This document shows positions 29,126 to 54,156 of a stretch of 64,000 nucleotides of DNA, piece after piece. The stretch comes from Escherichia coli (GTDB lineage: Bacteria; Pseudomonadota; Gammaproteobacteria; Enterobacterales; Enterobacteriaceae): NCBI RefSeq assembly GCF_003018115.1, contig NZ_CP027457.1; one strand, 5' to 3'. The translations under genes were made by a program, and so were the position numbers. The stretch's first letter is position 1. The number at the start of each line of letters is the position of its first letter. The notes beneath the pieces are model-generated. The model saw only the letters and a list, made by a program, of their open reading frames with translations, ran no database searches and had not been told where the DNA came from.

Positions 29126-30036
29126 TATCGAATTCCTTTATTCAGTTGCGCCTTGAGCTTGCGGTACGTCTCTACATCCCCTTTGTTTGCTGCCGCCTCC
29201 ATCTGCTTTTCAATCGCAGATATATTTGCAGCAACAGCGTGTCCCTGAATGGGTTCATCAGGTAGCGGGGCTTCTGAAACAGGTTTGGCTCGAGGCTTGA
29301 GAGTTAAACGTTCTGACAGTCGAGTGAGTTCAATCAGCGCGGATTGCCCGTCCATCGCCAGCAACTGGCGTGTTTTCTCAGGATTAGCACCAAGGTGATA
29401 CATGAGAGCGGCGGATTTCTCCGGGAAGAGGCGCATGATGTCGGCACCGACTGCTGGCGGCACCAGTTGCATGAATGCATCCTCTTTCTCCTGATAGTCA
29501 GGGATATTGAGCTTTTCCGCTGCGTCGTAGTGCTTACGGGCTGCCTCGACGTATTGCGCTGATTGCTGGGTGAACTCCTGAGTTTTGCGACCCTGCTCGG
29601 CGACAGCCTGGCTTCGTGCGTCCATAGCCTTGATCTGCCATTCACTGTTTGCCTGCTGGAAGGCAGCCAGTGCGCGGCTCTGGTCATAGTCGTACTTAGC
29701 CAGTGCATCTTCGGAAAGATAATCGTTAGGGTCTGGTTGTTTTGGTAACTCAGGGTTCACCCGCAGGTGCTCCGGCAACTCTCCACGCTTAACCGCTTCC
29801 ATCTGCTGCTCAAGCTCACGCTGGCGTTTGCGTTCGATGCGGCGACGGGCAAATTCAGCATTAGTTGCCGGGTCTTGTTTTGGTTTCTCATCGTCTTTCA
29901 GGACAATCTCGAAGCCTTCTTCCTGACCTGCGTTGTCGTTGGCATTATCGACAACTAAGCCATCAGCAGATGCCGCTGCATGATTGCCGGGCAGGGTTAA
30001 TTCTTCAGAAGCCTGAATGTCGGTGGTTTGGTCCAT
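29125..30036 (-). CDS. Scaffolding protein, P22 gp8-like
   Basis: 303-aa translation ...[60 protein letters not shown]... Confidence 0.92.
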
Positions 30037-30049
30037 GATTAACTCTCTC

Positions 30050-32215
30050 TTATTGAGGTGTCTCGGCTACTCCGCCGGAGGGGATTTGAACTTGACGCAT
30101 AAGATTCGCGAAATCAATGCGTTGTGAATGAGTCTGGTCTGCATCTTTAAGAAGCAGCTCAGCGTTAGCACGAGCATCTTTGCTGCGCTGTTGCTGGAAT
30201 TGACCTACGAGCTTGAGGTACTCACGCAGTTCTGCCTGCTTGTCGAGGTCCATATTGTTAAAGATTTCTGCAATCTTCGCGGCGTTGAGTTGGTTTTGGG
30301 CTTCAACCTTGGCGGCTTCAACCTGAATCTGCGCCTGTTGGTTCTCTGCCTTGAGCAATTCAGCCTGACCTTGCAGAAGGATACCCTGCGCCTGAATTTG
30401 CTCTGCTGATGGCTGCTGCGGCTGTTGTTGTGCCTGCTGTACCATCTCCATCTCTTCAGGTGTTTCTGGTTTCTTCAGCCCCATCATCACCAGTTGCTTG
30501 TTAGCGTACTCTCGCATCATCTCGACGCCTTTACCGTCAAGCAGCGTGAAGTATTGCAGCATCAGCATCTGGAACTCTGGAGTACCTTGCGGAACCTTGG
30601 TGAGCAACTCCTGAATCTCTGCGCGGTTCTGTTCCTTCATACTCTGGAAGGATGGTCCAACGTCCGTATAGCACTCATATCGACCACGAATGTCGTTGAG
30701 TGTGACCACATTGCCGGACTGGTAATCGACAACTTGCGCATAGAGTTGAACGTCTTTCTCGCTTCCATCTTCAAGTGTCAGCGTTACATGACGAGGAACG
30801 TCATAAATATCGTTGACCATTGAGGCATAAATCTCGCCATCACGTCGCATTGCGGTAGCCAGGTTATCCTGAAACACGTATGTCTCAAGGTCTGCCCGCA
30901 TGTTCAGTTGATTGACGGTATCGAAAGCGACCTGACCATTTGCCGCCTGCGCATCCACGCCAAGACTAGCCACCTCTTTCACTGCGTTGGTGGCAGCCTC
31001 AAGCATGTAAGCGTTGGCTTGCGGCACTTCAGGGTTTTCCATGTAGGAGATTGGACCAATCGGCAGGTCGTTACCGTTTTCATCGGTCTTGTTCTGCAAA
31101 TAGTACGGATAGTCATCATTTCCACCGTACATGTATTCGTAGCCTTCGATTTGCTCAGGGAAGAAGGTCGGTTTCTTCTTCGGTGAACGAGCAACAATAT
31201 CGGCGTTGAATGACATGATCATGTTACGAAGGCGCTGACCGTCTTTCGTCAGCCTTACCACTCCTTCGTAGCACTCCTTGTCACCAGCGAATGACCATTC
31301 GCCATACACTGGAACGATTGGAATATGCTCTCCGGCTATCTTCTCGCGGTCTTTCAGTATCTGCGTGCAGGTGATGATCGACTTATACACACGCCGACGC
31401 TTCACCTTGCGCTCTGCTACCTTAATGAATCCACGATTAGCCAGGTCGTCGATGACGTCTTTGATATCTTGCTGGTAATAGCTGACCGGCTCACCTGTCA
31501 GCGGGTCGCGGTAGATGAAGACTTTTTCTTTCTTCTCTTCGACCTCGTAATACTCAGCGACGTAGACGACATCATTCGATACCCACGGAAACAGCCATGT
31601 GTCGTTCGGATTCTGGAAAGATGGCAAGGTATCCGGATCAATACCGTAATCCTCTGCGAACTCTTTCCAGCCATTGCGTGACAAGGCGTTAATCACCGTG
31701 CAGTGCTTAGCGTCGCTCTTATCCATCTGCTTGCTGTTGGCGTCCCATATGACGTGTGAGCAGGCTTCATGGATTGGCAGGCGTCGGATTACCTGATTGT
31801 TGCTTGTTGGATCGTTGTCTTCGTACTGCGTGACCAGACGCCATGCACCAACGCCTGACTCTATCTGCTCACGAACGCCAACGTTAACGGCAATTTTTGC
31901 CGTATTATGGCGCATATCAGTACGATACATCCCCATCAACACATCGGCTGCATCAGGATTAGCGCCGTCTTTGGGTCGGAAGAGAACGTCGATAGGGTTC
32001 CGGCGCATCTCTGCGACCAGCTTCCTGACCACCGGGCGAACAACATCGAATTGTCCGCGATATTGCAGGGTGGTGTAGTTTGATAGCCAGTCATCCCATT
32101 GCGACACTCGGCTAAAATACAGGTCATTTGTCGCCTCGGTTCTGGCTTCATCGCTCGCCATCCAGTCCGCGTCAAACTTACACAGAATGGAATTGAGTCT
32201 GTTTTCGTCGGCCAT
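30050..32215 (-). CDS. Portal protein, P22 gp1-like
   Basis: 721-aa translation [43 protein letters not shown]... Confidence 0.92.
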
Positions 32216-33715
32216 TTAAGTTCTCCGTGCGATGGGCCTGATTGGGGCTGGTATCTTTTTCTCTTTTGGTTTTTTGATGTCGCGCATCATTTTGGCGAAG
32301 CGGCGCATCATGTATGCATAGCGAACGGCTGAGAGAACGTCGTCGTTAAGCTTGACGATCTTCCCGTTTTCATCACGGTGATAGAGGCGGAATTCCTCAA
32401 AGAATGGTTCACAGGTGTTGAATACCTTGAAGCGACCATCTAGCATCATGTCGCGCAATTCAGTGATTCCAGGCTCAACAGCATTACCGCCATCAGGCCA
32501 TGTCGCATGCTCCTGCAACATCATAAATCCAGCGTCCGCATACTGCCCTTTGAGCTGCTCACCGCCGCCCTTCTCGTGCTGGTTTCCGTCATGGGGCCAT
32601 GCGGTTGGCACTTTATGCGCCCATGGTTTAACGGCTCCCCACGCCTGAACGGCTGTCTTTTCTTTCGCCTTCCACACGCGTGAAAGGTAGATTATGTCTG
32701 CGTCCTTATCCCACCAAAGCTGAACCTGCGCCTGTGGGTGATCCCATCCGAAATCCATCCCGCCAATTACGTAGAAGTGATCCGGACACTCGAACGGCTG
32801 ACACTTAATCGTCTCTTCCGGTATCTGGAAGATTCGACCGCTACCCATCGTAGGAATACCGCGAGCACGCGCCTCTCTCTCATGCTCGGGATAGGATGCG
32901 ATGATTTGCTCTTTTTGCTCGTCGGTGTAGTGCTCAGCGTCGTAGATGGTCATGTTGACCACTTTCTGCGACTTGCTGGGATTCTTCAGGAACTTGGTAA
33001 CAACGTCAGACATCCCCATCAGCGGGGTAAACGTCAGAATTGAGAATTGCCCGTATTTGTTGGTACGGGTAAGGCCTTCGCCATAAATGCTGTATGGTGG
33101 TTCTTCGTCAAACCACACGCCATGGATTGTATCACCCTGCCAGCGAGCACGGCCTTGCGAGTATGGCTTGAAGTAGCAGATTGAAATGCCATCTTCAACG
33201 CCATCAGCCGTGTGATGCTTAACCAGAAGATGATCAACAAGGTTCGGAAAGAAAGGAGACTTCTTCCAGCTAATGATGTCTTCTTTCGGTATGGAACCGT
33301 AGCCAGGCTCATCATTCTCTTCGATACGACCGCACAGGATGCGTTGAGTCGTTTTGGTTACCGTCTCGTTTGTCTCGCCGCCAATCCAGAAGACAACAGG
33401 CTCATAGAAACGCTTACCTTTCCACTCGCCGCCATATTTACCATCAGCAGGATAGCCTTTTGTGCCAGGATAACGCCCTGTAAGGTGAAACGCGACTTCA
33501 GCAGCGCCAGTAAATGACTTACCAAGCTGGTTACCAGCCATAAAACATCGCTCTGGATAGTCATGCCCGGCGTCGATGAACTCACGCTGTTTGCTGTATG
33601 GCGTAAATTCATACAGCAGGTGTGTGTTCCGGTAGTTCTCTTCTTCTTCGAGTAGATCGAGCAATTCGATTTGCTCTTCATCGCTCAGGTTATCAAGAAT
33701 CGCGTCCAGTTCCAC
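32216..33715 (-). CDS. Terminase large subunit, P22 gp2-like
   Basis: 499-aa translation [46 protein letters not shown]... Confidence 0.92.
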
Positions 33716-34181
33716 GGTTGAATAGCTCCTTGATACGAGAGCGCCGCTTATCGCGATCTCCCTTATCAGGTGTCACGTCTTCAACTTGCGACTGCTCTTT
33801 GAGGCCCAAATCACGGGCGATGATGTTAGCGTTGAGAAGGTCAGCGGCTGCGCCAGAGAATTTCTGGTCGTAGATGACCTGCTCTGCTCGCGTAACGACT
33901 TCAGATAAATCTTCTCGCAGGCGATATGTGCGCCATGTTTCAAGCGTCACATCAATGAACAGAGTGAGGCCGGTGATGGTCATCGCTCGCATCTTGGCGA
34001 TAGGCTCTTGCATCACTTCCCCCTGATACGAGAACGCCTTCATCTCCCATAGCGGGTTAGCTTCCACCCACTCGAAGTATTCACAACAAGCAGCCCACAG
34101 CGCCTCAGGCGATTCGAATTTAGGGTTTCGCCCATGACTACTGCGGGCCTCCCAAAATCGGTTGCCCTTTGGTGCTGCCAT
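33693..34181 (-). CDS. Terminase small subunit, P22 gp3-like
   Basis: 162-aa translation [50 protein letters not shown]... Confidence 0.92.
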
Positions 34182-34260
34182 ATTGATTATTTCCCTTCTG
34201 CTTGCTTATCCCATTCATCGCGGAATTTGGATGGGTTGTCGAAACCTTGAGTTGCCATGA

Positions 34261-34503
34261 TTATGCTCCGGTGGTGAACAGGTCTAACACTTCCTTCGAT
34301 TTACGTACCGCTTCGATAGTGCGGGTCGTGATATCTGAATTAGCGCCGCCTGACTGGAAGTGAATTTTGAATAGCTCAAGCTTCAGCTCGTCAGTGCCAA
34401 TGAACTGAAATGCTTCTTCTGCGGCTGCGTTCTGGTTCATGACCAGTTTGTAAATCTCTAACTGGAATTTCTGTTCTTCAGTCATGGGAATAATCTCTGC
34501 CAT
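34261..34503 (-). CDS. Hypothetical 80-aa protein upstream of terminase (P22 ORF80-like position)
   Basis: ORF in the late operon between rha and the small terminase gene. Confidence 0.5.
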   Translation of the reverse strand: MAEIIPMTEEQKFQLEIYKLVMNQNAAAEEAFQFIGTDELKLELFKIHFQSGGANSDITTRTIEAVRKSKEVLDLFTTGA

Positions 34504-34712
34504 TGTTGGCTCCGTTTATCCGTTAAAAGGGATATCAGTTAAGTTATCCCGTGCAGGGTATAAGCTATTGTCGAGACCACTCATTGAATGGTCTCTCCAT
34601 CAGTCCGCCACCACAAAGAATCTTTTTTGCCATAAGGCAGGAGGTTCATCTTTCAGTGGCTGCCAGTGTTATTTCCCCACTTACTGGCTTGGGTTGTTTC
34701 GTGGTACTGCCG

Positions 34713-35255
34713 TTAATTGGTGAGTCCGGGGATTACGGTTTGCCCGTGCTGTTCAAGGCGTTCAATTCTCGCCAGTAGCTGAGGCTTCTTAATTTTTCCC
34801 CAGCGATTAAGCAGGCGGCCTGACATGCTGGCAACATCCTTCTCTTTCATGTACTCCAGCATTACGGCATTTCTCTCTTCTTCAAATTGACGATGACCAA
34901 CCTGAAGCATGGCGTACATCCAGTTGAATGCGTTGATGTAAGCAATTTTGATACGCATTGCTTCTTTTTTGGTGTAGGACATAACCAAAAGCATCAACCC
35001 ATCCTTACGTAGCCGATAGAATTTTTGCGGCTTACCATTCTGTAACTCATTGTTTTTATAGCAAAGCTCAAAGTTGAGCTTTGTATCAAACTCAGGAGGG
35101 CAAGCTTCTATGGTTCGCTCAATGTCACGGACTACGTTCTTCGGCAGCTTTCCAAATGCTTTTGCCACCATAAAAGAATCTGTAACCGGATCGTTGTTTG
35201 CTACAAAAATTAGGTCTCTGAAATCTATATCGTTAACAACGGTTGGGTAGTTCAT
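34713..35255 (-). CDS. rha: Rha family phage regulatory protein
   Basis: N-terminal ...VTDSFMVAKAFGKLPKNVVRDIERTIE... typical of Rha domain; position after the lysis genes as in P22. Confidence 0.65.
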   Translation of the reverse strand: MNYPTVVNDIDFRDLIFVANNDPVTDSFMVAKAFGKLPKNVVRDIERTIEACPPEFDTKLNFELCYKNNELQNGKPQKFYRLRKDGLMLLVMSYTKKEAMRIKIAYINAFNWMYAMLQVGHRQFEEERNAVMLEYMKEKDVASMSGRLLNRWGKIKKPQLLARIERLEQHGQTVIPGLTN

Positions 35256-35601
35256 TGCGTCTTTACCTTTTAGAAAGATGAGCCTGTTCGCACAGAAAAG
35301 CCGTCCCCGAGATGGTCGCCACCATATACGGCAATTCTCAGGCTCAGCTTTCTGAAAGACTCGGGATTGTTACGCGCTGCGATGCGCGGTTTACTGCAGA
35401 TGTAAAAAAGCCCCGCTACTGCGAGGCTAAATCCTGGTGTTTGTGATGACTGGCCCTTATCTCAACGCAGCCCCTTACCGCGCGCCAGATGCTCAATATC
35501 AAGCATCAGCAATGAGATGTTTAATCTGGATTCACTCCAGAAGTGATCACCACCCTGTCTACAGAGCCAGATGTGAAGGATGATGAGTAGAATTATCGCT
35601 A

Positions 35602-36039
35602 TCATCGAAGGCATTGCGTCCTGATGTATTCCTGCAGGTAGTTAACCTGCGCGGTTATCCTGTCGATTCCACTTCGGAGACGGTAATAATTGAGTTCAGC
35701 ATCTGCTGTAAGTCTTGGGCTTTCTCCATCGCCCATGCTGCTGGCTCCGGTCGTTGACTTTGCACAGGTGGCGGAGACTTGCAGGCGCTTACGACCAACA
35801 GAAACATCAGCACGGAGACTTTCGATAGTCGCGTTAGCATCAGCAAGCTCCTTTGTGTATCTGGCGTCGAGTTCTGCTACATCACGTTGACGCTTCTGCA
35901 TATCAGCGATGATGGATGTGGCTTTGTCGCGCTGGTCTTTATAGGCGATGGCGTTATCACGGTAATGATTAACAGCCCATGACAGGCAGACGATGATGCA
36001 GATAACCAGAGAGGAGATAATCGCGGTTACTCTGCTCAT
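35602..36039 (-). CDS. Rz: Spanin inner-membrane subunit Rz (lambda-type)
   Basis: Translation [34 protein letters not shown]... nearly identical to lambda Rz N-terminus. Confidence 0.9.
35655..35846 (-). CDS. Rz1: Spanin outer-membrane lipoprotein subunit Rz1, embedded in Rz in another frame
   Basis: Embedded ORF with lipobox VVSAC and proline-rich segment; start approximate. Confidence 0.7.
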
Positions 36040-36512
36040 ACCTCAATCTCTCTGACCGTTCCACCTGCTTCTTTGAATTTTGCAATCAGGCTGTCTGCCT
36101 TATGCTCGAACTGACCATAACCAGCCCCCGGCAGTGAAGCCCAGATATTGCTGCAACGGTAGATAGCCTGACGAATATCGCCGCGATCAATCATCGGTAA
36201 AGCGCCACGCTCTTTAATCTGCTGCAGCGCAACAGCATCCTGGCTTTTCGGAGAGAAGTCTTTCAGGCCAAGCTGCTTACGGTAGGCATCCCACCAACGG
36301 GAAAGAAGCTGGTAACGTCCAGCGGCTGTTGATTTGAGTTTGGGGTTTAGCGTGACAAGTTTGCGAGGGTGATCGGAGTAATCAGTGAATAGCTCTCCGC
36401 CAACAATGACGTCATAACCATGATTTCTGGTTTTCTGACGTCCGTTATCAGTTCCCTCTGACCACGCCAGCATATCGAGGAACGCCTTACGTTGATTATT
36501 GATTTCCACCAT
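36036..36512 (-). CDS. R: Endolysin R (lytic transglycosylase, lambda-type)
   Basis: 158-aa translation [49 protein letters not shown]... matches lambda R. Confidence 0.95.
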
Positions 36513-36819
36513 CTTCTACTCCGGCTTTTTTAGCAGCGAAGCGTTTGATAAGCGAACCAATCGAGTCAGTACCGATGTAGCCGATGAACACGCTCGTTAT
36601 ATAAGCGAGATTGCTACTTAGTCCGGCGAAGTCGAGAAGGTCACGAATGAACCAGGCGATAATGGCGCACATCGTTGCGTCGATTACTGTTTTTGTAAAC
36701 GCACCGCCATTATATCTGCCGCGAAGGTACGCCATTGCAAACGCAAGGATTGCCCCGATGCCTTGTTCCTTTGCCGCTAGAATGGCGGCTAACAGGTCAT
36801 GTTTTTCTGGCATCTTCAT
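36496..36819 (-). CDS. S: Holin/antiholin S (lambda-type, dual start)
   Basis: 107-aa translation [41 protein letters not shown]... matches lambda S. Confidence 0.95.
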
Positions 36820-37215
36820 GTCTTACCCCCAATAAGGGGATTTGCTCTATTTAATTAGGAATAAGGTCGATTACTGATAGAACAAATCCTGGCTACTGTG
36901 TTTAGTAATCAGATTTGTTCGTGACCGATATGCACGGGCAAAACGGCAGGAGGTTGTTAGCGCAGCCTCTTGCCACCCGCTTTCACGAAGGTCATGTGTA
37001 GAAGGCCGCAGCGTAACTATCACTAATGAATTCAGGACAGCCAGTGGCTACGGCTCAGTTTGGGTTGTGCTGTTGCTGGGCGGCGATGACGCCTGTACGC
37101 ATTTGGTGATCCGGTTCTGCTTCCGGTATTCGCTTAATTCAGCACAACGGAAAGAGCACTGACTAACCAGGCTCGCCGACTCTTCACGATTATCGACTCA
37201 ATGCTCTTACCTGCT

Positions 37216-37418
37216 GTGCAGATATAAAAAATCCCGAAACCGTTATGCAGGCTCTAACTATTACCTGCGAACTGTTTCGGGATTGCATTTTGCAGACCTC
37301 TCAGCCTGCGATGGTTGGAGTTCCAGACGATACGTCGAAGTGACCAACTAGGCGGAATCGGTAGTAAGCGTCGCCTCTTTTTATCTCACTACCACAACGA
37401 GCGAATTAACCCATCGTT
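37216..37418 (-). ncRNA. Lambda-type 6S RNA (pR' leader transcript ending at tR')
   Basis: Region collinear with the lambda pR'-tR' leader; tR' hairpin and T-tract at about 37216-37245; boundaries approximate. Confidence 0.6.
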
Positions 37419-37424
37419 GGGTCA

Positions 37425-37453
37425 AATTTACCCAACTTTATTCAATAAGTCAA
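37425..37453 (-). promoter_or_regulatory. Late promoter pR' with overlapping qut site
   Basis: Minus-strand -35 TTGACT (37448-37453), 17-bp spacer, -10 TAAATT (37425-37430); matches lambda pR'. Confidence 0.8.
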
Positions 37454-37495
37454 TATTATGCCGTTAATATGTTGCCATCCGTGGCAATCATGCTG

Positions 37496-38119
37496 CTAAC
37501 GTGTGACCGCGTTAAAAATGTTGTCTGCGATTGACTCTTCCTTGTGGCATTGCACCACCAGAGCGTCATACAGCGGCTTAACAGTGCGTGACCAGGTGGG
37601 TTGGGTAAGGTTTGGGATTAGCATCGTCACAGCGCGATATGCGGCGCTTGCTGGCATCCTTGAATAACCGACGCCTTTGCATCTTCCGCACTCTTTCTCG
37701 ACAACTCTCCCCCACTGCTCTGTTTTTGCTATATCAACCGCACGGCCTGTACCGTGGCAATCTCTGCATCTTGCGCCCGGCGTCGCGGCACTACGGCAAT
37801 AATCCGCATAAGCGAATGTTGCGAGCACTTGCAGCACCTTTGCCTTAGTATTTCCTTCAAGCTTTGCCACACCACGGTATTTCCCCGATACCTTGTGTGC
37901 AAATTGCATCAGATAGTTGATAGCCTTTTGTTTGTCGTTCTGGCTGAGTTCGTGCTTACCACAGAATGCAGCCATGCCGAATCCGGCTTGTGATTGCGCC
38001 ATCCCCATAGCAGCCATCACATCAGTACCGGAAAGAGAGTCAGAAGCCGTGGCCCGTGGTGAGTCGCTCATCATCGGGCTTTTTGGCGAATGAAATTTAG
38101 CTACGCTTTCGAGTCTCAT
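37496..38119 (-). CDS. Q: Late gene antiterminator Q (lambda-type)
   Basis: 207-aa translation MRLESVAKFHSPKSPMMSDSPRATASDSLSGTDVMAAMGMAQSQAGF... matches lambda Q. Confidence 0.95.
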   Translation of the reverse strand: MRLESVAKFHSPKSPMMSDSPRATASDSLSGTDVMAAMGMAQSQAGFGMAAFCGKHELSQNDKQKAINYLMQFAHKVSGKYRGVAKLEGNTKAKVLQVLATFAYADYCRSAATPGARCRDCHGTGRAVDIAKTEQWGRVVEKECGRCKGVGYSRMPASAAYRAVTMLIPNLTQPTWSRTVKPLYDALVVQCHKEESIADNIFNAVTR

Positions 38120-38304
38120 GGTCTTCCCCTCTTGCCCTGTTTGACCATCAGGACGCCGTTAACTATTACGTGACGCTCGCCTTTGCTGTCTCGGTTGTAC
38201 TTGAGCACTGTTCCTCTTGCGCAGGAAAGCATCCTCGCCACTTCGGTCTGATTGCCTCGTGTCTGGATAAGAAGCTCTGGTATCGTTTGAATTGTGGCGT
38301 TCAT
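38116..38304 (-). CDS. ninH: NinH-like protein
   Basis: 62-aa translation with ...YGNQTEVARMLSCARGTV... resembling lambda NinH. Confidence 0.7.
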   Translation of the reverse strand: MNATIQTIPELLIQTRGNQTEVARMLSCARGTVLKYNRDSKGERHVIVNGVLMVKQGKRGRP

Positions 38305-38663
38305 ACGTTCTCCAGTTCGGTGATTTTTATTCCAAGCCTTCCGCCTGGTACTTTCACACCACGAATTACGCGAATGTCATCGAATTGCTCGTCGTCTTCC
38401 GCAAATCCGGCGTGGATAAGGGAGTCGAGTAAACCCTTCAGGATGTTATCGAGGTCGCGGCGGCGGGAGTCTGGAACGTCTGCGATGACTTTGATGCGGA
38501 GTCGTGATTTGGTGAAAATATCTAACTTGAGTTGGCGGATGATTTGCTGAACGTCTTTTCGGTATTTCTGGCCTTTATCGCTGATGTAGTATTGGCTTCC
38601 CCGTCTTCGCCAGTAGGTATTCACCGACGGCGGGTATGGAAGCACAAACCGATATTCATTCAT
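38301..38663 (-). CDS. rusA: Holliday junction resolvase RusA-like
   Basis: 120 aa; motifs LPYPPSVN...DVPDSRRRDLDN... typical of RusA. Confidence 0.8.
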   Translation of the reverse strand: MNEYRFVLPYPPSVNTYWRRRGSQYYISDKGQKYRKDVQQIIRQLKLDIFTKSRLRIKVIADVPDSRRRDLDNILKGLLDSLIHAGFAEDDEQFDDIRVIRGVKVPGGRLGIKITELENV

Positions 38664-38950
38664 GACTTAACCTTCCCCTCCTTCAGCAATACCGCCTGCG
38701 TCCTGATCACGCCTTCGAGGTGGTAAAGTCTGGCGTCTTTGTTGTCGAGGTTATGGGTGCGTCGGTCGATTTCATCGTGACACGCGCTACAAGCCCATGC
38801 GCCGATCAGGTCGTCAGGCTTCATTCCCGTTCCGCAAATTCCAGCCATCCGGTAATGTGCCAGAACTGTAGTTTCAGGATTGCCATTGCATACGCCGTAA
38901 ATACGTACCTGGCATTCTCTGCCGCGTGCTTCTTTGCGTAGGTTAGCCAT
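38660..38950 (-). CDS. Cysteine-rich nin-region protein (DUF1364-like)
   Basis: 96 aa with paired Cys/His motifs; nin-region context. Confidence 0.5.
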   Translation of the reverse strand: MANLRKEARGRECQVRIYGVCNGNPETTVLAHYRMAGICGTGMKPDDLIGAWACSACHDEIDRRTHNLDNKDARLYHLEGVIRTQAVLLKEGKVKS

Positions 38951-39219
38951 TATGGTTCACTCCAGTAATTCTCAATTGCAGCAGCCATTCTCTGCATCCA
39001 CTCAGCCAGCTTTAACGCGGCTTCTCTTTCAGAACCACATTTAGGGAAATCCTTCATTTCCATGCTGGCCTTATATGTTCTGAATGCCAGGTCTCCGGTA
39101 ATAACCAGCTCCTGATCAAGCACCGAGCGTTTATTCCGGTGTTGAACGTAATAGACAGATTCAGTCCGCATTTCTTCTCTGTCTTTTTTGAAGGAAATAA
39201 GCTCAGAGAAATCACTCAT
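38950..39219 (-). CDS. Hypothetical nin-region protein
   Basis: 89-aa ORF, translationally coupled to neighbours. Confidence 0.4.
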   Translation of the reverse strand: MSDFSELISFKKDREEMRTESVYYVQHRNKRSVLDQELVITGDLAFRTYKASMEMKDFPKCGSEREAALKLAEWMQRMAAAIENYWSEP

Positions 39220-39387
39220 CGTCTTCTTCCTCGTACATTGAGCTATTCGGATCGCTCATCAGTTCTGCGCAGCAGTGCTCACATACGTGAACTTCCAGCA
39301 CATGCAGCTTCTGACCGCAGTTAGCGCACGTTAAAGCCCGCTCGACGCTTTCTTTCTGGTATTGAAGGGATTGGGATGGGCTAAGCA

Positions 39388-39753
39388 TTATTGGATTCTC
39401 TGCATCATGAGAAAGACAATCATGGCGGCGCGGAGGGGATTTTCATGTATAACTCGCTTAGATTTACAGTAGGCCACACCGCGTGCACCCCACTCGTCTT
39501 CATCGAGATTGATAATGCTAATCCTGTATTTTTCAATAATCGGCCATGCGTCTGCTGGGTTTGCGCATGGGTTAAAGGATCCGCGCTCAACTTCTACTTC
39601 AACTGCGTCTCCGTTTACAATGTCTCCCTCAAATGAGACAAACACCATATCGCCATTCTCACCTTCTTTGTAATCCGGTGATCCGTTATGAATGGCTTCG
39701 AATACCGCCACGTTAATTTCAAAATCACTTAACTGTGAATAATCCATTGTCAT
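39388..39753 (-). CDS. Hypothetical acidic nin-region protein
   Basis: About 121-aa ORF; start approximate. Confidence 0.4.
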
Positions 39754-39926
39754 TTCCTCGCACGATGTCTTAGCCACCGGATATCCCACAGGTGAGCCGT
39801 GTAGTTGAAGGTTTTTACGTCAGATTCTTTTGGGATTGGCTTGCGTTTATTTCTGGAGCGTTTCGTTGGAAGGTATTTGCAGTTTTCGCAGATGATGTCG
39901 GTGATACTTCGTCGCTGTCGTCTCAT
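39750..39926 (-). CDS. ninE: NinE-like protein
   Basis: Translation [58 protein letters not shown] matches lambda NinE. Confidence 0.8.
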
Positions 39927-40333
39927 TCGTACCTCCTGTCGGTAAATCTGACACCCTGACCAATAGCCCACGCTGTTGTGTACTCAATCAGACTTGCCAT
40001 ACGCTTTACACTCATCTGCGCGCTGCTTTCGCGGATGTTGACGTATTCGCCTTCAAGCCCGGGCAAAACATCAGCTTCCTGCTTTGTTGCCACTGCATGA
40101 CCGCTGATCAACAAAACCTTCCATTGTTCTGGTTTTAACCATTTATCGCGCCACTGAACTTGCCTGGCGATATCTGCGACCATCGCGTGAAATTTTGCGT
40201 TCTGGTCAAGATTTCGCTTGTAGTCAGTAATGCGGATGGTGACTGGCTTGTCTTTATCGAGTGGTGTTGCGAGGATGGCATTTATTGCGGCTTGCTGTTG
40301 TTGCTTAGTTCGGAGGAAGATTGTTTGCTTCAC
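39923..40333 (-). CDS. ninB: NinB (Orf) recombination mediator-like protein
   Basis: 136 aa; ...[27 protein letters not shown]... resembles lambda NinB. Confidence 0.75.
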
Positions 40334-40344
40334 TGAATACTCCT

Positions 40345-40536
40345 TTATTTTTTATGCCTGTAACCCCATTCTTCCAGCAACCTTGCGGCGTACCACCCAA
40401 GAAACAAAGGAAAGAACATTACAATGAGATATTCCCCGCCACGGTCAATGTTCGAAATTGACCAGATTACGATGTAACCAGTGCAGGACAGGAATATTAC
40501 AAACCCCAAAAAGCTACTTCGTCGACTCATGCTCAC
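40345..40536 (-). CDS. Hypothetical small membrane protein
   Basis: 63-aa ORF with two hydrophobic helices. Confidence 0.35.
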   Translation of the reverse strand: MSMSRRSSFLGFVIFLSCTGYIVIWSISNIDRGGEYLIVMFFPLFLGWYAARLLEEWGYRHKK

Positions 40537-40853
40537 TCCTTCACTTTGATTCCAGCAGCGCGGATGTTTTCCTCATAAGCATCCATTGCATCACCGAAGC
40601 CATTGGAATAATCAACAGTAAACCCTTTGGCTAAGGCTTCTCTGCTGTCGATAAACTTTGGCGCGGTTATTTCAATAGCTGCTCGCGATGCCTGCCACGT
40701 TTGCCAGTGGCCTTGAACATCGTCCATCACGTATTGACCACCAATATTACCGCTGCCAATTTCATGGTGATTTTCAGGGTAACGGATAAGGTCTGAAGAT
40801 TCGCCCCCACGTCGTAACCAACTCTCTTCAAACTGCTTTCTTGATTCGTCCAT
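40533..40853 (-). CDS. Hypothetical protein
   Basis: 106-aa ORF in the operon between helicase and nin genes. Confidence 0.4.
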   Translation of the reverse strand: MDESRKQFEESWLRRGGESSDLIRYPENHHEIGSGNIGGQYVMDDVQGHWQTWQASRAAIEITAPKFIDSREALAKGFTVDYSNGFGDAMDAYEENIRAAGIKVKE

Positions 40854-40870
40854 CGATACTTATCCTCAGT

Positions 40871-41077
40871 TCAACTCACAAAACGCCACGCCATTTTTGC
40901 AACAGCGACAGGCGCAACACCGATAATCACCCACATGAGAGTGCTACCGAAAAGCACACCCACCATGTCTTTACCTTCACCTACCAACCGGATAAAACTG
41001 CTGGCAATCACAATGAACGTCACCACCATCCACGACGCACCGAGAAGCCTCAATGCAGAGAAAATTAACTCAGCCAC
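40871..41077 (-). CDS. Hypothetical small membrane protein
   Basis: 68-aa ORF with two hydrophobic helices. Confidence 0.35.
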   Translation of the reverse strand: MAELIFSALRLLGASWMVVTFIVIASSFIRLVGEGKDMVGVLFGSTLMWVIIGVAPVAVAKMAWRFVS

Positions 41078-41149
41078 GATTTACTCTCCCCCAAATAAAA
41101 AGGCCTGCGATTACCAGCAGGCCTGTTACAAGCTCAGTGATGTAGATGG

Positions 41150-42526
41150 TCATACGTCAGCCCCTTGTGCATATCGTCTGCCACGCGCAGCAGGTGCATT
41201 TGATGCTGTGCAAATCTGTCTGGCTTCATCCTGGTCACATGCAACAAAGTGTCCGTTACAGAACCGCTGGTAAACCGTACCAAGCGAGCCAAAACGGTTT
41301 TTCGTCACAATGATTTCAGCAAATGGTGCGGCGCTACTGTTCTCGTCATATACCGCTTCCCGATAGAGCATGATGATTGAGTCTGCGTCCTGCTCAATGC
41401 TTCCTGAATCACGCAAATCTGCGTTTGTCGGGCGTTTGTTTGGTCGCTTCTCAACATCGCGCGAAAGCTGACTCAGGGAGATAACAGGCGTTTTCAGGTC
41501 TTTCGCCATCGCCTTCAGGCTTCCGGAGATGTGAGCAATTGCAAGGTCGTTGCGGTCTGCTTTCGGCTTCTCAATCAGGCCAAGATAATCCGCCATGATG
41601 AGTGACAGGTTTGGATTTTCCTGTTTGTGCCGTTCTGCGATTGAGCGTATTTCTTCGACCGATAAACGCGAGGCATCGACTACCCATACATCCAAATCTG
41701 CGAGCTGACTCATGCCGTTAGCAACACGCGCCCAGCCTTCGTCATCCATCGATGCAGGATTTCGCAGTACGCTAACCGACATCCTCCCGGCGTTGGCAAT
41801 GCTTCGCTCTGCAATCTGCAATGCGCTCATTTCCATTGAGAAAATCAATACCCCGCGCCGGACGTCAGAACCAGGAATAACGCGGCTTGCAACGCCTTCG
41901 GCAATCTTCAGCGCCAGTTCGGTTTTCCCCATACCAGGACGAGCGGCGATAATCACCAGGTCTTCCGCGTTCATCCCTCCGGTGATAGCGTCAAGTTCTT
42001 CGATTCCGGTCTTCAGGGTATCTGACTCTTCTCCGTTCCTCAGACGCCTGTCAAGCGTGTCAGTGTAGTCGGTGATGATTTCCCCTAACCGTACCGGTTT
42101 AACCTCGTCACGGGGCTTTCTGATGGCTGAAAGACGCTTTACAAGCTCATCCATCGCCTGACTAGATGCGTCGATGGTTCCGCTCTGAATTGGTTCACGC
42201 ATTTCGTCCATGATTTCCAGCACCAGACGGCGGTGATAGTTATCCGCGACCATTCCGGCATATCCCTTCAGGTTTGCGGCACTCGGGCAGTTTTTGCTGG
42301 TCATCAGGATTGACGTGAAATGCTCCTCTCCGCACGCCTCGGCAACCATCAGCGCGTCGATTAGGTTTCTGTTTCGCGCCTGCTTGCGGATAACCTCGAA
42401 GGCTTTCCGGTAGAGCGGAATTGAAAACGCTTCCGGCTCAAGCGTTGCCAGAACGTCACTGGCGGTTGGAGTTAATCCACCAATCAGCAGGCCACCGATA
42501 ACGCTCGCTTCGATATCCTGTCTCAT
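41150..42526 (-). CDS. Replicative DNA helicase, DnaB-type (P22 gene 12-like)
   Basis: 458 aa with Walker A GMGKTE and DnaB C-terminal motifs. Confidence 0.9.
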
Positions 42527-43344
42527 GCAATCCCCCTGTCTGCAAACTTCCCTTCCCGAACTCCCGTTAACGAGTCTTCCCTCAGCAGGTAATCAAAATC
42601 AGCCGTCCAGCCCGTGTCGTTGTCTCCGAAGTAAAACGGCTTGGCCTGATGCACAAACGCCCTGACATACGCTCTGAAACCGTCCACATTTGGCGTTTTC
42701 AGTTGCGGGATGATTTTCTTCAGGCGGCGTTTGCGTTTCTCGTTGACCGCAACAGCGTGTGGCAGTCTGTCACCGACTTCGGTGTTGTAGGCGTTCAGGA
42801 AGGATTCGTAGTCGATTCGTTCTGCCTTGCGACGTTCAGGTTTAACCTGCCCATCGCCACCCCCGTTAGGGGGTAAGGGGGTATTTGTATTTATTGTCTT
42901 TTGTATATTGTCTTTTGTGTTTAGCTGACTTGGCTTATACCCATTAGCCGACTTGGCTAATGTTTTATTAGCTGTTTTAGCTAATGTTAAGCTGTCATGG
43001 CTAATCCACTGAGAAACCACCTTGTTCACTCCGATTTTCACGCCATCAGCAATGAGGAATTTACGCTCGATAAGCTGGCGCTTGGCAGCGCAAACATGAG
43101 TGTGATGAATACCTGTCATGGCTGCTATCTGCGTGTTTGTGAGTCGATCCATCGGCTTATTGAATCCGTATGTCTTGCGCATGATAGCGAGCATCACCTT
43201 CATCTGCCGGACGGTTAAATCAGCCATCAGCAGACTGTCGGTAATCTCGTTAGCAACGCGCATGAAACCATCTTCGGTATCTGCCACGCGATGCTCCACG
43301 ACCTCCAGTTGAGGCCTGTAATCAGCTAACTTAACGACGCCCAT
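42523..43344 (-). CDS. Replication initiation protein with lambda O-like N-terminal domain (P22 gene 18-like)
   Basis: ...[36 protein letters not shown]... resembles the lambda O N-terminus; iterons inside the gene. Confidence 0.85.
42875..43000. repeat. ori: Replication origin: iterons and AT-rich tract inside the O-like gene
   Basis: Direct repeats TTAGCTGACTTGGCTTA / TTAGCCGACTTGGCTAA / TTAGCTGTTTTAGCTAA / TTAAGCTGTCATGGCTAA adjacent to an AT-rich stretch. Confidence 0.7.
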
Positions 43345-43526
43345 GTTTCACTCCTGCTTTGGCTAGTCTGTAAACACCAACAAGGCGCTCTGCGAACGCC
43401 CTGTTATTTGCTGCGGCTACCACTAATCCCTCAGGTGAATCAGGGTGTCGAATCTCTTCTTTTTCCTGGTATTTCTTACGACGTTTTGTCATAATTACTC
43501 CTGTGGATTGATCCAGTCTTTCTACA

Positions 43527-43802
43527 TCAGGCCTCGAAGAATTCGCCGTTCTTCGGGGCTTTTTCTTTTGTCAGCATTCTGGCTACTTTCTTAGCCAGTT
43601 CCGCCAACTCCTCGTCTTCAACACCCCATTCAAGAACAGCCAGAAGCATTCCCATTTTTGGGATGAAGCTGTCTTTCCATCGCGAAATTTGCGATTCATT
43701 AATTCCTAACGCGTCGGCAACCTTTCGCTGGCCACGTACAGCAATTCGATTCAGGATGTTGCTTGTAATTGCATTCGCTTTCTTGCGAGTACTTGTAAGT
43801 TC
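43527..43802 (-). CDS. cII: CII-like transcriptional activator
   Basis: ...GINESQISRWKDSFIPKMGMLLAVLEWGVEDEELAELAKKVARMLT... resembles lambda CII; start approximate. Confidence 0.8.
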   Translation of the reverse strand, partial: ELTSTRKKANAITSNILNRIAVRGQRKVADALGINESQISRWKDSFIPKMGMLLAVLEWGVEDEELAELAKKVARMLTKEKAPKNGEFFEA

Positions 43803-43862
43803 CATATGTAAGTATTTCCTTAACAAATAAGAAGTTATGCGCATCAACTTATGCGCGTTGTA

Positions 43863-43908
43863 TTCCCGCATTTCGGCGGGAATGAGGACCATGACTGTTA
43901 AAGAGCGG
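43863..43908 (-). promoter_or_regulatory. nutR (boxA CGCTCTTTAACA, boxB TTCCCGCCGAAATGCGGGAA)
   Basis: boxA/boxB pair just downstream of cro on the transcribed strand; same boxB as the nutL candidate. Confidence 0.6.
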
Positions 43909-43913
43909 TGTTA

Positions 43914-44108
43914 CTATTTGTTTTTCTTGTTGCTTGGGAAAGGACGAACTTCCTCTCCAATCACACTGCCATCAGGCTTTACCGTAACCATGATGTTACG
44001 GCCTGCCAGAATGGCCTTGCTGATAGCGCACTGGATTACACCAAAGTCACTGGCTGCTTTAGCCTGTCCATGGATTTTGGCGTAATCGGCAAGTGTCATT
44101 CGAATCAT
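43914..44108 (-). CDS. cro: Cro repressor
   Basis: Translation [62 protein letters not shown] resembles lambda Cro; GGAG RBS. Confidence 0.85.
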
Positions 44109-44139
44109 ATGCACTCTCCGTTATTAACCATGAACAAAG

Positions 44140-44203
44140 AATACTACAGGTATTCAAAGCAATCAATACTCAGGGTATTTTTAGTTTAAGTACCTTAGCT
44201 ATT
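44140..44203. promoter_or_regulatory. Right operator OR1-OR3 with divergent promoters pR/pRM
   Basis: 15-bp palindromes AATACTACAGGTATT (44140-44154), AATACTCAGGGTATT (44165-44179) and weaker AGTACCTTAGCTATT (44189-44203); pR -35 TTGATT / -10 TATTCT on the minus strand. Confidence 0.65.
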
Positions 44204-44214
44204 AGAATTAAGCT

Positions 44215-44931
44215 ATGGAAAATAAAAAATCACTGACGACAGAACAGCTCGAAGACGCTAAGCGGCTTAAGGCTTTGTATGAGTCAAAAAAGAAAGAATT
44301 GGGAATAACCCAATACTCAATCGCTGATGAACTGGGTATCACCCAAGGAGCGGTAGGGCATTATCTTAATGGCAGAAACGCGCTAAACGTTGAGGTCGCA
44401 TCTGGTTTTGCACGTTTGTTGCAAGTCTCAATTGCTGATTTTAGCCAGTCAATTGCTGCCAAGGTTGCAGAACAGGCAGAAAGCCTTAAGAGCGATGCCA
44501 ACGTAAGGTATGCAGGGGAATACAGAGCAGGAAAGAGGTATCCGGTGTTAAGCAGTATCCAGGCTGGCTCGTGGTGTGAAGCATGCGAACCATACACCAT
44601 TAAAGACATAGATGTTTGGCTTGAGTCTGACGCGCATATTCAAGGTAATGCGTTCTGGCTTAAAGTGGAAGGTGATTCAATGACGGCACCGGTTGGGTTA
44701 AGCATTCCAGAGGGAACATTCGTTCTTTTCGATACCGGAAGGGAGGCGATCAACGGCAGCTTGGTCATAGCAAAACTTTCTGACTCTAACGAAGCAACAT
44801 TCAAGAAGCTGATAATCGACGGCGGAAATAAATACCTCAAGGGACTTAATCCTGCATGGCCTCTCGTGCCAATCAATGGAAACTGCAAGATTATAGGCGT
44901 TGCAATTGAGACAAAACTAAGGCTGGTTTGA
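44215..44931 (+). CDS. cI: CI repressor (HTH plus LexA-like S24 autocleavage domain)
   Basis: 238 aa; ...LTTEQLEDAKRLKALYESKKKELGITQYSIADELG... and C-terminal ...AFWLKVEGDSMTAP... resemble lambda CI. Confidence 0.9.
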   Translation: MENKKSLTTEQLEDAKRLKALYESKKKELGITQYSIADELGITQGAVGHYLNGRNALNVEVASGFARLLQVSIADFSQSIAAKVAEQAESLKSDANVRYAGEYRAGKRYPVLSSIQAGSWCEACEPYTIKDIDVWLESDAHIQGNAFWLKVEGDSMTAPVGLSIPEGTFVLFDTGREAINGSLVIAKLSDSNEATFKKLIIDGGNKYLKGLNPAWPLVPINGNCKIIGVAIETKLRLV

Positions 44932-44945
44932 TCACGCAAGGGGCG

Positions 44946-45317
44946 ATTATGGTTGGAACCGCTATAGCAAGCTTTTTTGGGATGTTGGCAATCTCGACAA
45001 TTTACGGCTTAGCGCATGCTTTTATTGCGAAATCTCTATCAGAAAAAATAAGCCAGGCTTGGGCGCATAGATCAGCTCGTTTCATGATTCTGGTGATCAT
45101 AGCAATACAAGGGATATCTGCATTTATCCTCTATGGATCAAGCTTATACCTATTGTATCAAGGCGCGACATTTACGCCTTACACCAGTGATTACGGAACT
45201 CTATACGATGGTAGTGAAGACATCACTGTGGCTTGGATCGTCTTTGGTTTATCTATGGCCGTGTCTGTTGTAGCAGACATCATTAAGGTAATTCTCGTCT
45301 TAACCTTCGCTGACTAA
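44946..45317 (+). CDS. Small multi-pass membrane protein in the cI operon (rexAB position); function unknown
   Basis: About 123-aa ORF with 3-4 predicted TM helices beginning just after the cI stop; precedes OL/pL. Confidence 0.55.
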   Translation: MMVGTAIASFFGMLAISTIYGLAHAFIAKSLSEKISQAWAHRSARFMILVIIAIQGISAFILYGSSLYLLYQGATFTPYTSDYGTLYDGSEDITVAWIVFGLSMAVSVVADIIKVILVLTFAD

Positions 45318-45403
45318 CCTATAATCCCGGCAGCAATAGCTATCGGGATCCACTTCACATATCCCGCATAAAAAGCACTGAACAAGCAGACACCGAAAAA
45401 ATA

Positions 45404-45490
45404 AATATCCTTTGTATTCATTTGCTTATCATTATTTCACCAAAAATAAATACCTTGGGTATTTACACAATAAAATACCTACAGTATTCT
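45404..45490 (+). promoter_or_regulatory. Left operator OL1-OL3 and pL promoter
   Basis: AATATCCTTTGTATT (45404-45418), AATACCTTGGGTATT (45449-45463), AATACCTACAGTATT (45474-45488); -35 TTTACA / -10 TATTCT overlapping OL1. Confidence 0.65.
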
Positions 45491-45536
45491 TTAGCCATCA
45501 GCAGGACGCTGGAAGCCAAACGGAACAGATTGGCAG

Positions 45537-45577
45537 GCTCTTTAACATTGATGGGATTGTCCCGCCGAAATGCGGGA
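45537..45577 (+). promoter_or_regulatory. nutL (boxA GCTCTTTAACA, boxB TCCCGCCGAAATGCGGGA)
   Basis: boxA closely matching the rrn-type consensus followed by a hairpin, between pL and N. Confidence 0.6.
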
Positions 45578-45684
45578 ACCAAAGAGTAGTTGGCTTTGGG
45601 GTGACGTGAAGTGCAGCTGCACGACGGCAACCGGAAGATAAGCACCCGGCGCGTCACCGCCAAAGTCAATCATCGGAGGTCAAC

Positions 45685-45990
45685 ATGACAGTAGTCATTA
45701 CATATCTGGCTGACGATAACGCCAGAAATCGCCGCAGAGCACGCAGACAGGCTCAACGTGAACAGGCAATGCAAGAGCAGCGACTGGCGCGAAAAATTGC
45801 GCTAAAGCTCTCTGGTTGCGTCAGGGCAGACAAAGCAGCATCACTCGGAAGCCTTCGCTGCCAGAAGGCAGAAGAAGTCGAGCGTAAACAGAACCGTATT
45901 TACTACCGCAAGCCACGCAGTGAAATGGGTGTGACATGCTCAGGCCGCCAGAAGCAACGCGGAAAATCAATTCCAGCTTATTACGATTGA
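45685..45990 (+). CDS. N: N antitermination protein
   Basis: Arginine-rich motif NARNRRRARRQAQRE near the N-terminus; C-terminus ...GVTCSGRQKQRGKSIP resembles lambda N. Confidence 0.8.
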   Translation: MTVVITYLADDNARNRRRARRQAQREQAMQEQRLARKIALKLSGCVRADKAASLGSLRCQKAEEVERKQNRIYYRKPRSEMGVTCSGRQKQRGKSIPAYYD

Positions 45991-45998
45991 GGTTAATG

Positions 45999-46265
45999 AT
46001 GAAATTCAAATTGAACGATGAAGTTAAATGGTCTAGCTCATCAAACGGTGTAACGAAGGTAAAAATCGGGTTTATCGTTGAGGTGATTCCTCCTGGTGTC
46101 AACGTAAAAAAATTCGAACTAGGCCGTCTGCTAGATGCACCTGGCCTTCCGAGGAAAGAAGAGAGCTATATAGTTTGTGTAGGTCCAAGACCAGGATCTC
46201 GTGCCAAGCCAAAATATTACTGGCCGCGAGTTAATAACCTGCGTCGCTTACACGATGACAAATAG
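45999..46265 (+). CDS. Hypothetical early protein
   Basis: About 88-aa ORF immediately after N. Confidence 0.4.
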   Translation: MKFKLNDEVKWSSSSNGVTKVKIGFIVEVIPPGVNVKKFELGRLLDAPGLPRKEESYIVCVGPRPGSRAKPKYYWPRVNNLRRLHDDK

Positions 46266-46320
46266 AAGTGAGTATCCTTGTTTTACTTTTTCGCAGCAAA
46301 CCACTTATTTGAGGTGAGAT

Positions 46321-46572
46321 ATGGAATTTCATGAAAGTGCGATTTGTGATTTTCGCGCTAACGCAAATTCAGTAAAACCACAGCCAATTGCAGTTCTTTT
46401 TAAAACAATGGGTGCGTGGGCTGTTTTATGCTTCGCCGCTGATGACACTGACGCAAGAATGGCAATAGGCCAAGAGATGGAGATGGACCCGACAAACGAT
46501 GAATTCATAATTTATGGCGCTCCATCTAATTACTTACTTGATACCTGCAACATTTACAACAAGGCTGCCTGA
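46321..46572 (+). CDS. Hypothetical early protein
   Basis: 83-aa ORF. Confidence 0.4.
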   Translation: MEFHESAICDFRANANSVKPQPIAVLFKTMGAWAVLCFAADDTDARMAIGQEMEMDPTNDEFIIYGAPSNYLLDTCNIYNKAA

Positions 46573-46611
46573 TGGTGGCCTTTATTTTTGGCATAAACAA
46601 CAGAGGCTAAC

Positions 46612-46908
46612 ATGGAATTTAAAGGTACTAAAGGTAAGTGGGAAATAATGATTGATGGCGATGAGATTAAAATCATCCAGGCAGACTCACTTGAAAATGG
46701 CGCAGGCTGGCGTTCGTATATTGCAATCTGTGAGGAAGTTCAATGCATTGAAGATGCCAATCTAATAGCGGCAGCGCCTGACCTTCTCGAAGCACTTCAG
46801 TTATTACTTAAGCAAACCAAAAATAGAACAACGACAACATATCCAGAATGGTATGGAGCTGTTAATAAAGGTATCGCAGCAATCAGAAAAGCTCTTGGGG
46901 ATAAGTAA
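46612..46908 (+). CDS. Hypothetical early protein
   Basis: 98-aa ORF. Confidence 0.4.
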   Translation: MEFKGTKGKWEIMIDGDEIKIIQADSLENGAGWRSYIAICEEVQCIEDANLIAAAPDLLEALQLLLKQTKNRTTTTYPEWYGAVNKGIAAIRKALGDK

Positions 46909-47096
46909 TGAAAGTAAAAATAACTGCTTCTAATACCAGTTTTGTTAGTGTTGGTGATATTACAGAAGTAATAACAAACCATGATGGAACACAAGTTATG
47001 TGGTCTGATTTTTGTAAAAGATATGAGCGAGTCACTTGGTGTAAACTCGTATGGGGAGTCGAATACGAAGAATTACCTGAAATGCATGACGAATAA
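46908..47096 (+). CDS. Hypothetical early protein
   Basis: 62-aa ORF translationally coupled to the preceding gene. Confidence 0.35.
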   Translation: MKVKITASNTSFVSVGDITEVITNHDGTQVMWSDFCKRYERVTWCKLVWGVEYEELPEMHDE

Positions 47097-47281
47097 GCAC
47101 TGTGTATTCATTCCAACGAGTGAATACACGGAGCAATGTTGCTCGTAACTAAACAGGAGCCGACTTGTTCTGATTATTGGAAATCTTCTTTGCCCTCCAG
47201 TGTGAGGGCTTTTTTATATGCATACCAATAACGCTTCACTCGAGGCGTTTTCGTTATGCAATCAAACAGAAGGAGCATCCT

Positions 47282-47452
47282 ATGCAACAGTTCGCTATTG
47301 CAGGGGCGGCATCGGTTCGCCCTTTCAACCCGATTTTATCGGTACAGCATTCACGAAAAAACATTCTAACCGGAGCAGACTTTAAACAACCAAGAATGAA
47401 AAGTTTGCTCGAAAAGCTTTGGGATATTTTGAAACAACAAGGCCGCCCATGA
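47282..47452 (+). CDS. cIII: CIII-like protein (FtsH inhibitor)
   Basis: Translation MQQFAIAGAASVRPF...KSLLEKLWDILKQQGRP resembles lambda CIII; AAGGAG RBS. Confidence 0.7.
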   Translation: MQQFAIAGAASVRPFNPILSVQHSRKNILTGADFKQPRMKSLLEKLWDILKQQGRP

Positions 47453-47533
47453 GTTTTACAGATAGCTGGTCAGACGAAGAATTCATTCGTCAGATGAACA
47501 AAATGCTCAATCAGCACAAAGAACAGGAGAAAG

Positions 47534-47845
47534 ATGATGATTCTGACTCTGAATGATAAGCGTGAAATATCGCAAATAATCGCAAGTTTTACTGATGAAG
47601 ATTACGAACGAATCAACAGTGAAGTTGATCGCCTCTGCAAACGTTGCGACCCAATAAGCGAAATGCTTCGATCATATAAACCAGATGAACACACTAAGGA
47701 CGCTATCGACTGGCTGGAAGATGATGACTGTAACTATCAGGAAAAAGCCGCTGAATGGTTCTGGGATGCAATAACCGAAAGAGTTAAGGCTGAATATGCC
47801 TTCGCAATATTCAAACGCAGACATATTTATGGAGAAGCTGCATGA
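47534..47845 (+). CDS. Hypothetical protein upstream of recT (possible Abc2/Kil-like function)
   Basis: 103-aa acidic ORF; position analogous to anti-RecBCD/kil genes in P22 and lambda; no direct motif evidence. Confidence 0.4.
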   Translation: MMILTLNDKREISQIIASFTDEDYERINSEVDRLCKRCDPISEMLRSYKPDEHTKDAIDWLEDDDCNYQEKAAEWFWDAITERVKAEYAFAIFKRRHIYGEAA

Positions 47846-52762: not shown

Positions 52763-52801
52763 TGGCGGTTTTTTCTTGCGTGTAATTGCGGAGACTTTGC
52801 G

Positions 52802-54141: not shown

Positions 54142-54156
54142 TTAGTATAAAAAAGC
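54142..54156. repeat. attL: Prophage attachment site core, attL (B-O-P' read on the minus strand)
   Basis: 15-bp lambda core (as reverse complement) with lambda-like P' arm between core and int and bacterial arm on the ybhC side. Confidence 0.85.

Follow-up and report, generated by a model that had tools for sequence, protein, structure and literature searches.

The 1300-nt segment at positions 38119-36820 (minus strand) of the window, as we call the whole 64,000-nt stretch of E. coli DNA analysed here, is very probably a standard late antitermination cassette of lambda type, i.e. of the Q-lambda family, residing in an apparently intact P22-like (Lederbergvirus-type) E. coli prophage. This is a textbook cassette, and both the cassette and the mosaic around it are already known, having been sequenced and annotated many times. 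The original prediction had recognized the likeness to lambda and had further proposed that the late regulator of a P22-type phage was exchanged here for that of lambda. The first of these ideas was borne out by our analysis, while the second was not.

A lambda-type late antitermination cassette

As had been foreseen, Q and the interval between Q and S are collinear with lambda. The segment aligns without gaps to lambda positions 43886-45185, with 1272 of 1300 bases identical, and megablast against the lambda sequence (J02459) gave 100% coverage and 97.8% identity (E = 0), which is far beyond chance. The Q-S interval (37495..36820), expected to be roughly 680 bp long, comprises 676 nt, exactly the length of its lambda counterpart (44510-45185), and is identical to it at 661 of 676 positions, again with no gap. 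By sliding-window identity and blastn, the lambda-like block runs from near 38129, some 10 bp before Q begins, to near 36000, at the start of Rz, past which P22-like sequence takes over. Such a high identity to lambda over 2.3 kb could also be expected if a lambda cloning vector or contaminating laboratory lambda had been assembled into the contig. We rejected this artefact, whose probability seems negligible. The identity is 97.8% rather than 100%, and several of the 28 substitutions in 1300 nt are shared with natural phage sequences (IME10, E212, EC32) and not with lambda; moreover, the block sits unbroken in P22-like and nin-region sequence which is also found in other genomes.

The Q gene (37496..38119, minus strand) encodes a 207-aa late antiterminator. 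Its DNA is identical to that of lambda Q at 611 of 624 positions by direct comparison, and its product at 205 of 207 residues, the two differences being L135Q and L202F. The protein matches Pfam PF03589 (Antiterm, E = 1.3e-57) and, over its full length, chain Q of PDB entry 7UBM (E = 6e-138), as well as the solved Q-lambda chains of 7UBN and 4MO1. It thereby belongs to the Q-lambda family, which is marked by a helix-turn-helix body and a zinc-ribbon arm. In the arm (residues 114-152), the sole change relative to lambda is L135Q, which P22 also has; in fact, Q135 is the common allele among the Q sequences compared and lambda L135 is the outlier. We found a single Q gene in the 64 kb by tblastn with lambda Q and P22 gp23 as queries. 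The related EC32 prophage likewise has one antitermination protein in its PGAP annotation. There are 115 phage records encoding a Q at least 95% identical to that of the window, which, among the phages checked, include lambda, P22-like phages and the Hendrixvirinae phage mEp235, and the 90%-identity cluster to which the window Q belongs holds 3759 member sequences.

Immediately downstream of Q, 42 nt past its stop codon, begins the sigma-70 promoter pR' (37425..37453, minus strand), predicted to be constitutive. It was found by promoter scan as the only sigma-70-like site in 36400-38300, and it consists of the predicted -35 TTGACT (37453-37448) and -10 TAAATT (37430-37425) separated by a 17-nt spacer; both hexamers are the same in lambda and P22. 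The promoter overlaps qut (37405..37447, minus strand), which comprises a Q-binding element in the spacer and a sigma-dependent pause element, AACGAT, at +1..+6 (37418-37413), and onto which the qut annotation of P22-pbi maps. A putative Q-binding element between -35 and -10 is recognized by comparison with the lambda Qut 21-mer, as annotated in HK630 and mEp235, from which it departs at a single position; this is an A to G change at -18, common to P22, IME10, E212, mEp235 and EC32, and the other 20 of 21 positions agree. The pause element, and indeed all of +1..+36, is the same as in lambda. From -35 to +36 this core differs from lambda by two substitutions, G at -18 and C at -2, the latter common only to the EC32 prophage among the sequences compared. 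The qut/pR' segment, whose substantial divergence from lambda would have spoken against the original prediction, is not substantially diverged.

A 6S-like leader transcript of about 193 nt (37226..37418, minus strand) is predicted to extend from +1 (A at 37418), placed by homology with the annotated 5' nucleotide of the P22 P late RNA, to the U-run of tR'. It has 3 substitutions relative to lambda, and the fold of the whole transcript gave z = -3.7. The intrinsic terminator tR' (37226..37283, minus strand) lies between the promoter and the late genes, as originally predicted, and is formed by a long hairpin (37283-37231) followed by a U-run (37230-37226); it folds at -28.3 kcal/mol (z = -5.6), and its sequence matches lambda. 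A simple terminator scan missed tR', as its loop is beyond the limit of the scanner, and it was recovered by direct folding. By string match, lambda, the EC32 prophage, IME10 and E212 contain the arms of its stem, while P22 and mEp235 do not. An Rfam scan of 30000-48000 (E <= 1) returned no family, which is uninformative if Rfam is without a model of the lambda 6S/pR' leader. It can also be mentioned that the ATG start codon of lambda orf-64, inside the 6S region (position 37382, lambda 44623), is ATA in the window, with no equivalent ORF; this argues that the annotated orf-64 of lambda is not a conserved gene.

Two features of the cassette count against its being a standard one, namely the second residue change in Q and the substitutions in the promoter core. 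L202 of Q touches the flap-tip helix of RNA polymerase, and substitutions at this site impair, and can abolish, antitermination (PMC9388147). The change found here, L202F (Q codon 202, within 37499-38119, minus strand), is absent from the seven other Q sequences compared (including lambda, P22, IME10, E212, mEp235 and EC32), and the exact F202 protein (WP_106888426.1) is rare, occurring in 5 contigs from E. coli and Salmonella genomes. It could thus be supposed that the prophage is defective and its cassette a relic without function, for instance if L202F or the promoter-core substitutions disable antitermination. We consider this very improbable. Leu to Phe is a conservative replacement, viable phages also carry G at -18, and no change affects -35, -10 or the pause element. 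All genes examined have their full length, and both att cores and an intact integrase, described below, are present. Furthermore, the occurrence of the allele in two genera suggests its transfer by a working phage, and since genomes of both E. coli and Salmonella carry exactly this allele, L202F is probably tolerated in Q.

Comparison with P22 and the late regulator

According to the original prediction, P22 uses its own gene 23 antiterminator, and hence the cassette would represent a functional swap, in which the distinct gene 23 regulator of a P22-type phage gave way to the lambda Q cassette. This seems to us very improbable, since P22 gene 23 and its qut do not differ in type from lambda Q and qut. 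P22 gene 23 (AF217253) is 624 nt long and encodes a 207-aa product identical at 199 of 207 residues to both lambda Q and the window Q; in the corrected P22-pbi record, gp23 is identical to lambda Q at 201 of 207 residues (P22 gp23 is thus 96-97% identical to lambda Q) and shares 97.1% identity with the window Q. In P22 (AF527608 37186-37945) the order is gene 23 - P late - qut - t late, and P22-pbi carries the annotations "P late or P R'", "qut site (gene 23 protein utilization site)", the late RNA 5' nucleotide and "t late or t R'". From upstream of -35 to about +22, including TTGACT, TAAATT and AACGAT, P22, lambda and the window are the same nearly base for base. Published work also treats lambda Q and P22 gp23 as one type: P22, epsilon34 and Para1 carry lambda-type Q, and the qut of epsilon34 is identical to that of lambda (PMC2629481), while lambda Q and P22 gp23 are interchangeable (PMC8022706). 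With gene 23 and qut of P22 being of the same type, no regulator was replaced. A second P22-type gene 23, also looked for in the 64 kb by tblastn, was not found; neither this outcome nor the negative one on qut divergence addresses the faulty premise of the swap.

Two observations can nevertheless be cited in favor of an exchange. Other P22-like phages (L, ST104 and ST64T) carry different Q types, and in the window everything from the 6S body through tR' and the leader to S and R resembles lambda and differs from P22. Because of the latter, some recombination with a lambda-like phage must have occurred relative to P22. However, the segments unlike P22 start downstream of qut and not at the regulator. 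On sequence comparison with P22, the lambda-type modules are only the leader after qut and the endolysin R. In P22, transcription of the leader stops at a short hairpin located about 30-58 nt from the start, while the window has the 194-nt 6S/tR' of lambda, and the 676-nt interval from Q to the holin gene in the window compares with one of 434 nt in P22. The P22 endolysin, gp19, is unrelated to the lambda-type R of the window (19.6% identity). On the other hand, the antisense P a23 / t a23 elements, Rz and the packaging and head genes of P22 are of the same type as those of the window.

A standard lambda-type cassette in a P22-like prophage is also what the comparison with lambda and with P22-like coliphages points to. 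In lambda (J02459 43886-45969), the order Q-pR'-qut-6S-tR'-S-R, as well as lengths and spacing, is the same as in the window, and -35, -10, the pause element, the tR' hairpin and the paQ box with its terminator are unchanged. The two sequences part on either side: upstream of Q the window has ninH where lambda has ninI (orf221), and downstream lambda has its own Rz, Nu1 and A, while the window is P22-type from Rz on. The same mosaic is found in IME10, E212, HZ41, APC_JM3.2 and EC32-like prophages, which have a lambda-type Q, qut with G at -18, tR', S and R, followed, as in the window, by P22-type Rz, gp3, gp2, portal, scaffold and coat genes. Identity between the window and these P22-like coliphages and prophages is about 95-97% from Q to terminase, the closest sequenced phages being the P22-like coliphages HZ41, IME10 and APC_JM3.2, and 51 complete E. 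coli genomes cover at least 80% of the Q-to-terminase segment. None of the four phages and EC32-like prophages has the F202 residue of the window Q. They also vary in the leader between tR' and S, with an interval of 712 nt for E212 and of 809 nt for IME10, whereas that of the window is the simple lambda form of 676 nt. As mEp235 has a short leader in the style of P22, and IME10 and E212 have a long one in the style of lambda, the Q/qut core and the downstream leader reassort freely among lambdoid phages.

The leader upstream of S, lysis genes and late operon

The leader between tR' and S (36820..37225, minus strand) is of lambda type, with 97-100% identity to lambda in 100-nt windows. In EC32, Kapi1 and mEp506, tRNA-Asn and tRNA-Thr genes replace part of this leader (in the EC32 prophage, L004 25430-25585). 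A search for tRNA genes found none in the window, the leader included.

Fold and pairing comparison revealed a conserved GC-rich hairpin followed by GUUUUG (36939..36974, minus strand), about 150 nt upstream of S, which lambda, P22, mEp235, IME10 and E212 all possess. At its centre lambda has a G-C pair, E212 a U-A pair and P22 an A-U pair, and the window has an A.C mismatch there. The fold amounts to -28.5 kcal/mol in lambda, -31.9 kcal/mol in E212 and -21.8 kcal/mol in the window, where the hairpin is weakened. A role as secondary terminator or as processing site is conceivable. In the literature searched, we found no earlier account of additional terminators in the late leader of lambda; Luk and Szybalski are reported to have described tandem terminators in the lambda late operon in 1983. 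One may speculate that the GC-rich hairpin with its U-tract is a functional tandem terminator or an RNA-processing element which travels with the holin gene and not with Q, and that the natural L202F variant, at the flap-tip helix contact, may tune the efficiency of antitermination. We hold these two ideas jointly, as tentative and rather unlikely ones.

A second hairpin (36825..36841, minus strand), found by fold and pairing comparison, lies just upstream of the dual start of S (Met1-Lys-Met3, at 36819 and 36813). In P22, two compensatory changes preserve its pairing, and by its position it corresponds to the lambda sdi structure.

The lysis genes had been predicted to be those of lambda throughout, which holds for S and R and fails for Rz. 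The S holin/antiholin gene (36496..36819, minus strand; PF05106) encodes a product identical to lambda S at 106 of 107 residues, and the R endolysin (36036..36512, minus strand) is identical to lambda R at 155 of 158. The 145-aa Rz spanin (35602..36039, minus strand; PF03245) is of P22 type, with 131 of 145 residues (90%) identical to P22 gp15 and 57.5% identity to lambda Rz. Rz1 is embedded in Rz in the +1 frame (about 35655-35846, minus strand), and this embedded ORF has a lipobox-like LVVSAC.

Further downstream come packaging and head genes like those of P22 instead of lambda Nu1 and A, in agreement with what had been anticipated. A strong hairpin resembling an intrinsic terminator (35403..35428, minus strand; an 8-bp stem, of which 6 pairs are G-C, with TTTTTT after it, identified by folding) lies within the late operon, between Rz and a Rha-like gene (34713-35255, minus strand; Pfam). 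It is followed by a DUF2560 gene homologous to P22 ORF80 (34261-34503, minus strand; Pfam, 97.5% identity), the P22-type small terminase gp3 (33693-34181, minus strand; PF16677 GP3_package, 99.4% identity) and the P22-type large terminase gp2 (32216-33715, minus strand; Pfam, 92.2% identity). Portal, scaffold, coat and other head genes come further along the late strand, the last gene being that of a tailspike with PF09008 (Head_binding). This is a P22-like (Lederbergvirus-type) virion and packaging module in P22 order, collinear with P22, IME10 and HZ41, and its late genes are all intact and all on one strand.

The prophage and the proposed regulation of its late genes

The exact lambda att core, GCTTTTTTATACTAA, occurs twice in the window, at 15230-15244 and 54142-54156, about 38.9 kb apart, with 0 occurrences expected by chance. 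At one end of the prophage there is an intact lambda-type integrase gene (52998-54068, plus strand) with Arm-DNA-bind_1 and Phage_integrase domains, and the flanks consist of bio/uvrB/moa on one side and of pectinesterase-like and aconitase-family genes on the other. The two exact att cores, the lambda-type integrase and the bio/uvrB/moa flank together show that this P22-like prophage occupies the classical attachment site of lambda.

Within the prophage, the tailspike gene is closely followed by a gene for a 354-aa membrane acyltransferase (15692-16756, minus strand; Acyl_transf_3), which probably serves lysogenic conversion by O-antigen acetylation. Where the early antiterminator N/gp24 would be expected there is a 101-aa ORF (45685-45990, plus strand); its N-terminal stretch, NARNRRRARRQAQREQ, is rich in arginine, and no Pfam family matched it. 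The ORF may encode an N-like protein of distinct boxB specificity.

Elements of the lysogeny circuit were recognized as well. Inside Q there is an antisense promoter of the paQ type (37819..37851, plus strand), to which the "P a23" and C1 binding site annotations of P22-pbi map; its CII/C1 box, TTGCGAGCACTTGC, at 37819-37832, is the same in lambda, P22 and the window. The terminator of the antisense paQ RNA (taQ, or t a23; 38052..38084, plus strand) corresponds to the mapped "t a23" annotation of P22-pbi, was detected by terminator scan at 38056-38074, and folds at -24.9 kcal/mol (z = -3.4). Together, these elements probably make an antisense RNA that restrains Q in the establishment of lysogeny. 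TTGC-N6-TTGC motifs are also present at 43759-43772 (plus strand) and 52776-52789 (plus strand), i.e. at the positions of lambda pRE (cII region) and pI (upstream of int). The motif as such is not enriched in number (6 found, 6.1 expected), and only the paQ, pRE and pI positions are meaningful; these three suggest a complete CII-dependent lysogeny circuit.

The architecture of the cassette agrees with that described for lambda, for which the mechanism of Q loading is also known (PMC9388147). While the identities, motifs and folds reported above were observed directly, we infer pausing, Q loading and read-through from the near-identity to lambda, and the following course of events may be proposed. 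Q would be made as the product of the last gene of the early right operon, and RNA polymerase would start constitutively at pR', with +1 at 37418. The polymerase is expected to pause at about +16/17, because sigma-70 would rebind the -10-like AACGAT at +1..+6. When Q is lacking, transcription would terminate at tR', yielding the 6S-like RNA of about 193 nt. When Q is present, it would bind the Q-binding element in the spacer, load together with NusA onto the paused polymerase and form a nozzle on the RNA-exit channel. Polymerase modified in this way should pass both tR' and the terminator-like hairpin at 35428-35403, and go on to transcribe the remainder of the late operon, which is roughly 20 kb long and covers lysis, terminase, head and tailspike genes. 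During lysogeny establishment, CII-activated paQ inside Q probably damps Q.

What these results correct is the misconception that P22 "gene 23" is a regulator different from lambda Q, and beyond correct annotation they are of little importance. The Q gene, its promoter and qut are inherited as one unit which is common to lambda, P22 and many lambdoid phages, whatever their type of head and tail, and the real joints of the mosaic lie just after qut and around the endolysin.
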